In this document: positions 63,903 through 63,966 of the stretch, piece after piece
How positions within the stretch are numbered: the first letter of the stretch is position 1
How the letters are laid out: every line of letters begins with the position of its first letter
Origin: Escherichia coli
GTDB taxonomy: Bacteria; Pseudomonadota; Gammaproteobacteria; Enterobacterales; Enterobacteriaceae
NCBI RefSeq assembly: GCF_030384885.1
Contig: NZ_CP128613.1
DNA length: 64,000 nucleotides
Direction: 5' to 3' (one strand)
Position numbers and translations under genes: made by a program
Notes under the pieces: generated by a model
What the model saw: only the letters and a program-made list of their open reading frames with translations
Database searches by the model: none
Told to the model about the DNA's origin: nothing

Positions 63903-63966
63903 CTTCCGATGTAGGCCCGTACTTTTCGCCTGTACCGCGGGTCGGTTTTAGTACAGGCGTTTTCTT
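63903..63966 (+). ncRNA. rydC: RydC small regulatory RNA (Hfq-dependent, pseudoknotted)
   Basis: cttccgatgtaggcccgtacttttcgcctgtaccgcgggtcggttttagtacaggcgttttctt closely matches the RydC sequence as I recall it; ends in stem cgcctgtac/gtacaggcg plus U-tract; sits next to ydcA. Confidence 0.75.

Follow-up and report, generated by a model that had tools for sequence, protein, structure and literature searches.

The end of the 64-kb window (the whole stretch of Escherichia coli DNA analysed) carries ydcI (+), trg (-), ydcA (-), the gene of the small RNA RydC (+) and cybB (-), in this order (Table 1). The order trg, ydcA, rydC, cybB is common to K-12, where rydC is annotated as b4597 at the homologous position. 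Published descriptions also place rydC convergent with cybB, with ydcA at its 5' side in E. coli and Shigella (PMC11340327 section 5). The predicted YdcA, 57 residues long, shares 95% amino acid sequence identity with YdcA of K-12. On the other side of the small RNA gene, the stop codon of cybB (63977-63979, minus strand) lies 10 nt past the RydC 3' end; the K-12 annotation of rydC is one U longer, which brings the end to 63967. Over its final 701 bases the window has the same sequence as E. coli strain 2013C-4282 (NZ_CP027579.1; 100% identity), and most other E. coli reach 95-99% identity there.

Table 1. Genes, regulatory elements and RNA segments at the rydC locus (positions in the window; nt, RydC numbering).
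Feature	Position	Strand	Basis
trg	61636-63276	-	gene order
ydcA, divergent 5' neighbour of rydC, 57-aa secreted small protein	63559-63732	-	ORF
Probable YieP (GntR/FadR-type) operator, inverted repeat ATTTGTCATACAAAT, -29 to -15	63874-63888	.	motif match, conservation
rydC promoter, -10 hexamer TATAAT (-11 to -6 relative to the start, C63903)	63892-63897	+	sequence; conservation
rydC, RydC small RNA, 64 nt	63903-63966	+	RF00505 match; alignment to K-12 ncRNA b4597
5' single-stranded seed, nt 1-11, CUUCCGAUGUA	63903-63913	+	invariance; predicted cfa pairing; PMC4337610, PMC6755755
Stem 1 5' arm, nt 12-18, GGCCCGU, with A13G at 63915	63914-63920	+	Rfam consensus structure, pair counts
Loop 1, nt 19-24, ACUUUU, with U20C (63922) and C22U (63924)	63921-63926	+	K-12 alignment
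Stem 2 5' arm, nt 25-33, CGCCUGUAC	63927-63935	+	9/9 pairs with 63951-63959
Stem 1 3' arm, nt 35-41, GCGGGUC, with A35G at 63937	63937-63943	+	Rfam structure, pair counts
Loop from stem 1 to stem 2 3' arm, nt 42-48, U46/U47 at 63948-63949 kept	63944-63950	+	sequence
Stem 2 3' arm, nt 49-57, GUACAGGCG; terminator hairpin with 63927-63935	63951-63959	+	sequence, pair counts
3' U-tract UUUUCUUU, tail of the terminator and site for the proximal face of Hfq	63960-63967	+	sequence; PMC4337610
cybB 3' end (cytochrome b561), incomplete at the window end; convergent with rydC	63977-64000	-	NZ_CP027579.1 RefSeq annotation

In the trg-ydcA intergenic region (63536-63552), about 338 bp that hold yncP-hokB-mokB-sokB (type I toxin-antitoxin) in K-12 are missing with a clean junction; they are missing also in the best-matching genomes and present in others, and the Rfam scan detected no sok RNA in 60000-64000. 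Just past the window end, the annotation of 2013C-4282 has an intact gene of type I glyceraldehyde-3-phosphate dehydrogenase adjoining cybB, at 3897-4898 of the fetched locus (L001); its K-12 homologue is the pseudogene gapC. In Pseudocitrobacter faecalis, two tandem matches to sok (94.9 and 83.6 bits, at 2872-3042 and 3390-3528 of the fetched locus, L069) lie downstream of cybB, in the place occupied by RydC in Escherichia. The 3' flank of cybB seems to be a place where small-RNA and toxin-antitoxin loci vary. Elsewhere in the window, minus-strand Rfam matches to group II intron domains D1-D4 (25864-25981, 93.1 bits) and V/VI (24164-24239, 62.8 bits) suggest a complete mobile group II intron at 24164-25981. 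The minus strand also carries a SECIS_3 selenocysteine insertion element (4682-4740, 84.3 bits), presumably inside a formate dehydrogenase gene.

The Rfam model of RydC (RF00505) covers exactly positions 63903-63966 of the plus strand, whose sequence is CTTCCGATGTAGGCCCGTACTTTTCGCCTGTACCGCGGGTCGGTTTTAGTACAGGCGTTTTCTT, from model position 1 to 64 of 64 and untruncated. Its score of 80.1 bits exceeds the gathering score of 48, and the E-value is 3.8e-15 in a permissive scan of 4 kb and 6e-14 in the scan of the whole window. RydC is the only Rfam family found in 60000-64000 at E<=1 in the permissive scan. The initial annotation had recognised here a 64-nt RydC lying between ydcA and the window end. 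The full-length match with its high score and the gene order of K-12 bear out this identification, and the coordinates then given are exact. All defining features of RydC that can be tested on sequence are present in this segment. We are nearly certain that it is the complete chromosomal rydC, coding for a known Hfq-dependent small RNA; the allele probably works as K-12 RydC. The gene is thus an already known and ordinary one, in a rare allele that preserves the structure.

In the E. coli genomes listed from outside K-12, NZ_CP027579.1 included, RefSeq has nothing annotated where RydC matches; among the E. coli records listed, the ncRNA rydC is annotated only in that of K-12. The small RNA is systematically missing from the RefSeq annotation of E. 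coli outside K-12. Correct annotation is the main value of the present assignment, with little beyond.

The putative rydC promoter has a -10 hexamer that is invariant in 10 aligned upstream regions and no recognisable -35 box. Because the latter is missing, a consensus scan finds no full sigma-70 promoter. The same layout, TATAAT without a -35 box, has been described for rydC (PMC11340327 section 5). Escherichia, Salmonella and Citrobacter share a conserved segment that begins near -35 and runs to the start; the sequence farther upstream is not conserved. Within this segment ATTTGTCATACAAAT forms a perfect inverted repeat, and its reverse complement agrees at 15/15 positions with the YieP motif atTTGTaTGAcaAAT defined by ChIP-exo (PMC7642389). 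It is the only exact match to this motif in the 64-kb window and the site is conserved in the three genera. Its designation as a novel operator is rejected: rydC and ydcA are already listed among the YieP targets by ChIP-exo (PMC7642389). The perfect match over the promoter spacer is instead a concrete candidate operator for the published repression of rydC by YieP, which is about 20-fold in E. coli (PMC11340327). Binding of YieP at exactly 63874-63888, overlying the spacer, is probable and fits the published data; a protein bound at -29 to -15 would directly block RNA polymerase. Position 63878 is G in the window and in most E. coli and A in K-12, and the K-12 variant is found in 12/79 metagenome copies. 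This G63878A difference makes the K-12 operator an imperfect palindrome, ATTTATCATACAAAT, with one mismatch to the YieP motif, whereas the window matches it perfectly.

Judged from its pairing pattern, RydC is an H-type pseudoknot in which stem 1 (nt 12-18/35-41) is interleaved with stem 2 (nt 25-33/49-57). The stem of 9 bp followed by a U-tract, which had been noticed in the initial annotation, is stem 2: positions 63927-63935 pair with 63951-63959 through 6 G-C and 3 A-U pairs, and UUUUCUUU follows. The window allele retains 7/7 standard pairs in stem 1 and 9/9 in stem 2, two of them G-U. The stem-1 duplex has a calculated energy of -10.9 kcal/mol against -11.2 in K-12, and the stem-2 duplex -14.9 kcal/mol in both. 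In the crystal structure of Hfq with RydC, the contacts on the RNA are the U-tail and two U-U steps, U23/U24 and U46/U47; the U23/U24 contacts are made with the Hfq rim and are required for RNA stability (PMC4337610). Both steps are present in the window allele (U23/U24 at 63925-63926). The pseudoknot itself is needed for the stability of RydC in vivo, and its disruption destabilises the RNA (PMC4337610).

We searched 80 cybB loci from Enterobacteriaceae with covariance models built for this work. RydC lies within 1.5 kb of cybB in 11 of them; those listed are five from Escherichia, two from Salmonella and three from Citrobacter. The other 69 have no RydC beside cybB, and Rfam finds none in 19 of these. 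This fits the location of rydC at ecr-yebY, a different locus, reported for Klebsiella and E. aerogenes (PMC11340327). Pairs were counted on a MAFFT alignment of 12 sequences from the three genera Escherichia, Salmonella and Citrobacter. Of the cells, 97.6% hold standard pairs; in control counts with the 3' partners displaced by one to three columns the figure drops to 26-42%. In stem 2 pairing is complete (100% of the cells), and 4/9 of its pairs are changed on both sides across genera (G-C/A-U, U-A/C-G, A-U/G-C and C-G/U-A). These are true compensatory changes between genera, amounting to at least two independent events in this small sample of three genera. Stem 1 is nearly invariant in sequence, and so is the 5' end: nt 1-12 are identical in 12/12 sequences, and the conserved seed CUUCCGAUGU is the same in the window and in all 11 others. 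The pair of positions 11 and 42 (63913 and 63944), outermost in stem 1, is an A-G mismatch in E. coli proper and A-U in E. albertii, Escherichia sp. E1V33, Salmonella and Citrobacter. Because of this mismatch stem 1 of E. coli has 7 bp and not 8.

The short distance between the hairpin and the cybB stop codon, 10 nt, could mean that the hairpin belongs to the convergent cybB, as a 3' stem-loop or terminator and nothing else, and that its likeness to RydC is incidental. We give this reading next to no credit. After the hairpin the minus strand reads AAAAGU and has no U-run, so that the hairpin is no canonical terminator for cybB. The element is missing from the 69 loci mentioned above and so does not belong to cybB in general. 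The match to the RydC model extends over all 64 nt, seed and stem 1 included (E 3.8e-15), and the conserved -10 hexamer stands upstream at the proper distance. The covariance-model score and the conservation of the promoter refute a cybB terminator, and we retain the identification as RydC.

The initial annotation had also remarked that a few positions differ from K-12 and that these might be compensatory changes within the pseudoknot. Alignment to b4597 reveals exactly four substitutions, A13G, U20C, C22U and A35G (60/64 nt identical). None of them breaks pairing. They are not compensatory, however. A13G (pair 13:40, A-U to G-U) and A35G (pair 18:35, U-A to U-G) are one-sided changes in separate stem-1 pairs, each of which is kept. 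U20C and C22U fall in the unpaired loop 1 and adjoin the retained U23/U24. A compensation of 13 with 35 is rejected since the two positions sit in different pairs. One of 20 with 35 is rejected as well since they are not paired together either in the pseudoknot or in the alternative fold discussed below; C20 without G35 is found in one metagenome contig (A13/C20). The seed (nt 1-11), stem 2, U46/U47 and the U-tail are untouched. With pairing preserved, the four changes look harmless at the level of sequence.

Perfect 64-mer matches in 5,426 complete E. coli genomes place the window sequence in a series of alleles. The K-12 allele is found in 4,064 genomes, the G13 allele in 1,242 (23%), the G13/C20/G35 allele in 56 and the window allele (G13/C20/G35 plus U22) in one, strain 2013C-4282. 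RydC is present in single copy in 5,406-5,415 of the 5,426 genomes, the number varying with the query. Of about 5,410 matches, five are on records labelled as plasmids, which may be mislabelled replicons or chromosomal fragments. Natural variation of RydC in nearly all E. coli genomes is confined to positions 13, 20, 22 and 35, with pairing always kept, and the main alleles never alter the seed or stem 2.

The change C22U is either a variant private to one strain or an error. A sequencing or assembly error, or a recent neutral mutation, would make G13/C20/G35 the real circulating allele, which we regard as unlikely although not negligibly so. It would agree with the single occurrence of the exact window 64-mer, against 56 for the form without U22, and with the metagenomes: a 28-mer specific for U22 has 0 matches in metagenome contigs, against 103 contigs for a degenerate control pattern, and the 80 fetched contigs comprise 66 of K-12 type, 11 G13, 2 G13/C20/G35, 1 A13/C20 and 0 with U22. 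However, C22U is a substitution, unlike the homopolymer-length errors typical of long-read assemblies. Since position 22 is unpaired, the identity and the structure of RydC are unaffected by the status of this change.

With folding restricted to nested pairs, K-12 is predicted to form the stem-2 hairpin (-14.4 kcal/mol) and the alleles bearing G13 an arm-swapped fold, in which nt 13-21 pair with 48-56 and nt 24-31 with 35-43. In this fold A13G creates the pair G13-C56 and U20C the pair C20-G49, and the nested minimum free energy drops from -14.4 (K-12) to -16.1 (G13), -18.7 (G13/C20/G35) and -19.3 kcal/mol (window). The window allele could accordingly be RydC by descent but weakened or misfolding, its substitutions stabilising the arm-swapped fold. 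This fold would compete with the pseudoknot, remove the compact terminator hairpin and lower the stability or the activity of the RNA; the destabilisation of RydC in vivo upon disruption of its pseudoknot (PMC4337610) would go in the same direction. Both the misfolding and the effect proposed for it are, in our opinion, very unlikely. By a rough Dirks-Pierce-style estimate the pseudoknot, at -22.6 kcal/mol, is still below the nested fold, with a margin that declines from about 8.5 kcal/mol in K-12 to about 3.3 in the window. In the nascent transcript stem 1 (-10.2) beats helix B (-6.9), so that the pseudoknot is predicted to form first; nascent RNA of 43 nt folds into stem 1 in all alleles. 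When only nested pairs are allowed, the arm-swapped fold already prevails in the ensemble of the G13 allele, present in 1,242/5,426 E. coli genomes and in E. albertii, and given how widespread this allele is, the fold is evidently tolerated. It has no support in Salmonella or Citrobacter. Its absence from the predictions for these genera led us to reject it as a conserved functional state.

Taken from these folding calculations, the arm-swapped fold would be a low-probability modifier and not evidence of loss of function. It is very unlikely that the series A13G, then U20C with A35G, then C22U progressively stabilises this fold, yielding rare alleles in which the balance between pseudoknot and open form is altered. 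Should it be true, the RydC half-life, the efficiency of termination or the relative strength on cfa versus csgD may be altered; pairing with cfa takes nothing but the free seed, and pairing with csgD requires an opened stem 1.

RydC has been studied extensively for its control of curli synthesis, biofilm formation and the amount of cyclopropane fatty acids in the membrane. Through its seed it base-pairs with cfa mRNA at an RNase E site in the long leader, the one derived from sigma-70 (PMC6755755). This pairing, around -109 to -99, stabilises the mRNA and opposes Rho (PMC6755755, PMC11340327). Repression of csgD involves a longer pairing for which stem 1 must open (PMC3985669), and work on K-12 and Salmonella has shown that RydC further represses yejABEF, pheA and trpE (PMC4337610, PMC6755755, PMC11340327, PMC3985669). 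Hfq-dependent accumulation and activation of cfa are known for the K-12 and Salmonella alleles (PMC4337610, PMC11340327, PMC6755755). In NZ_CP027579.1 the cfa leader site UUCUACGUCGGAU (-110 to -98) is identical to that of K-12. The duplex predicted between RydC 3-13 and cfa -99 to -109 has an energy of -16.6 kcal/mol against -17.2 in K-12, the sole effect of A13G being to turn the outermost, last pair into a wobble. With the csgD initiation region of K-12 (-13 to -1), the duplex predicted for RydC 6-18 gains slightly in strength in the G13 alleles, at -15.8 kcal/mol against -14.3.

The window allele probably acts like RydC of K-12 and Salmonella, because stem 1 stays paired while the seed, stem 2, the Hfq contacts, the terminator and the cfa site are unchanged. 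Hfq would bind the U-tail and the steps U23/U24 and U46/U47 and present the seed. The seed would then pair with the long (sigma-70) isoform of cfa, mask the RNase E site and counteract Rho, and the outcome would be a higher level of cyclopropane fatty acid synthase. By its sequence, stem 2 doubles as the intrinsic terminator.

Compared with known systems, the window element is closest to RydC of K-12 (b4597, RF00505): it lies at the same locus, and the two agree fully in the seed, stem 2 with the terminator, the U-tail, U23/U24, U46/U47 and the -10 hexamer. It differs from it by two stem-1 pairs that are A-U in K-12 and G-U here, by positions 20 and 22 of loop 1, and at the level of the locus by the lack of yncP-hokB-mokB-sokB, which in K-12 stand between ydcA and trg. 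RydC of Salmonella enterica, crystallised with Hfq (PMC4337610), has the same seed, stem-1 sequence, topology and position at the side of cybB. It has a length of 66 nt and a 5' neighbour unlike that of E. coli. In its stem 2, C-G, G-C and U-A replace the U-A, A-U and C-G of E. coli, with both sides changed. It also has an eighth stem-1 pair, A11-U42, in place of the A-G mismatch of E. coli. ArrS is likewise a small RNA activating cfa; its site in the cfa leader overlaps that of RydC and it protects the mRNA from RNase E (PMC6755755). Its sequence is unrelated and its locus is another one, and the window element matches the model of RydC, not ArrS.
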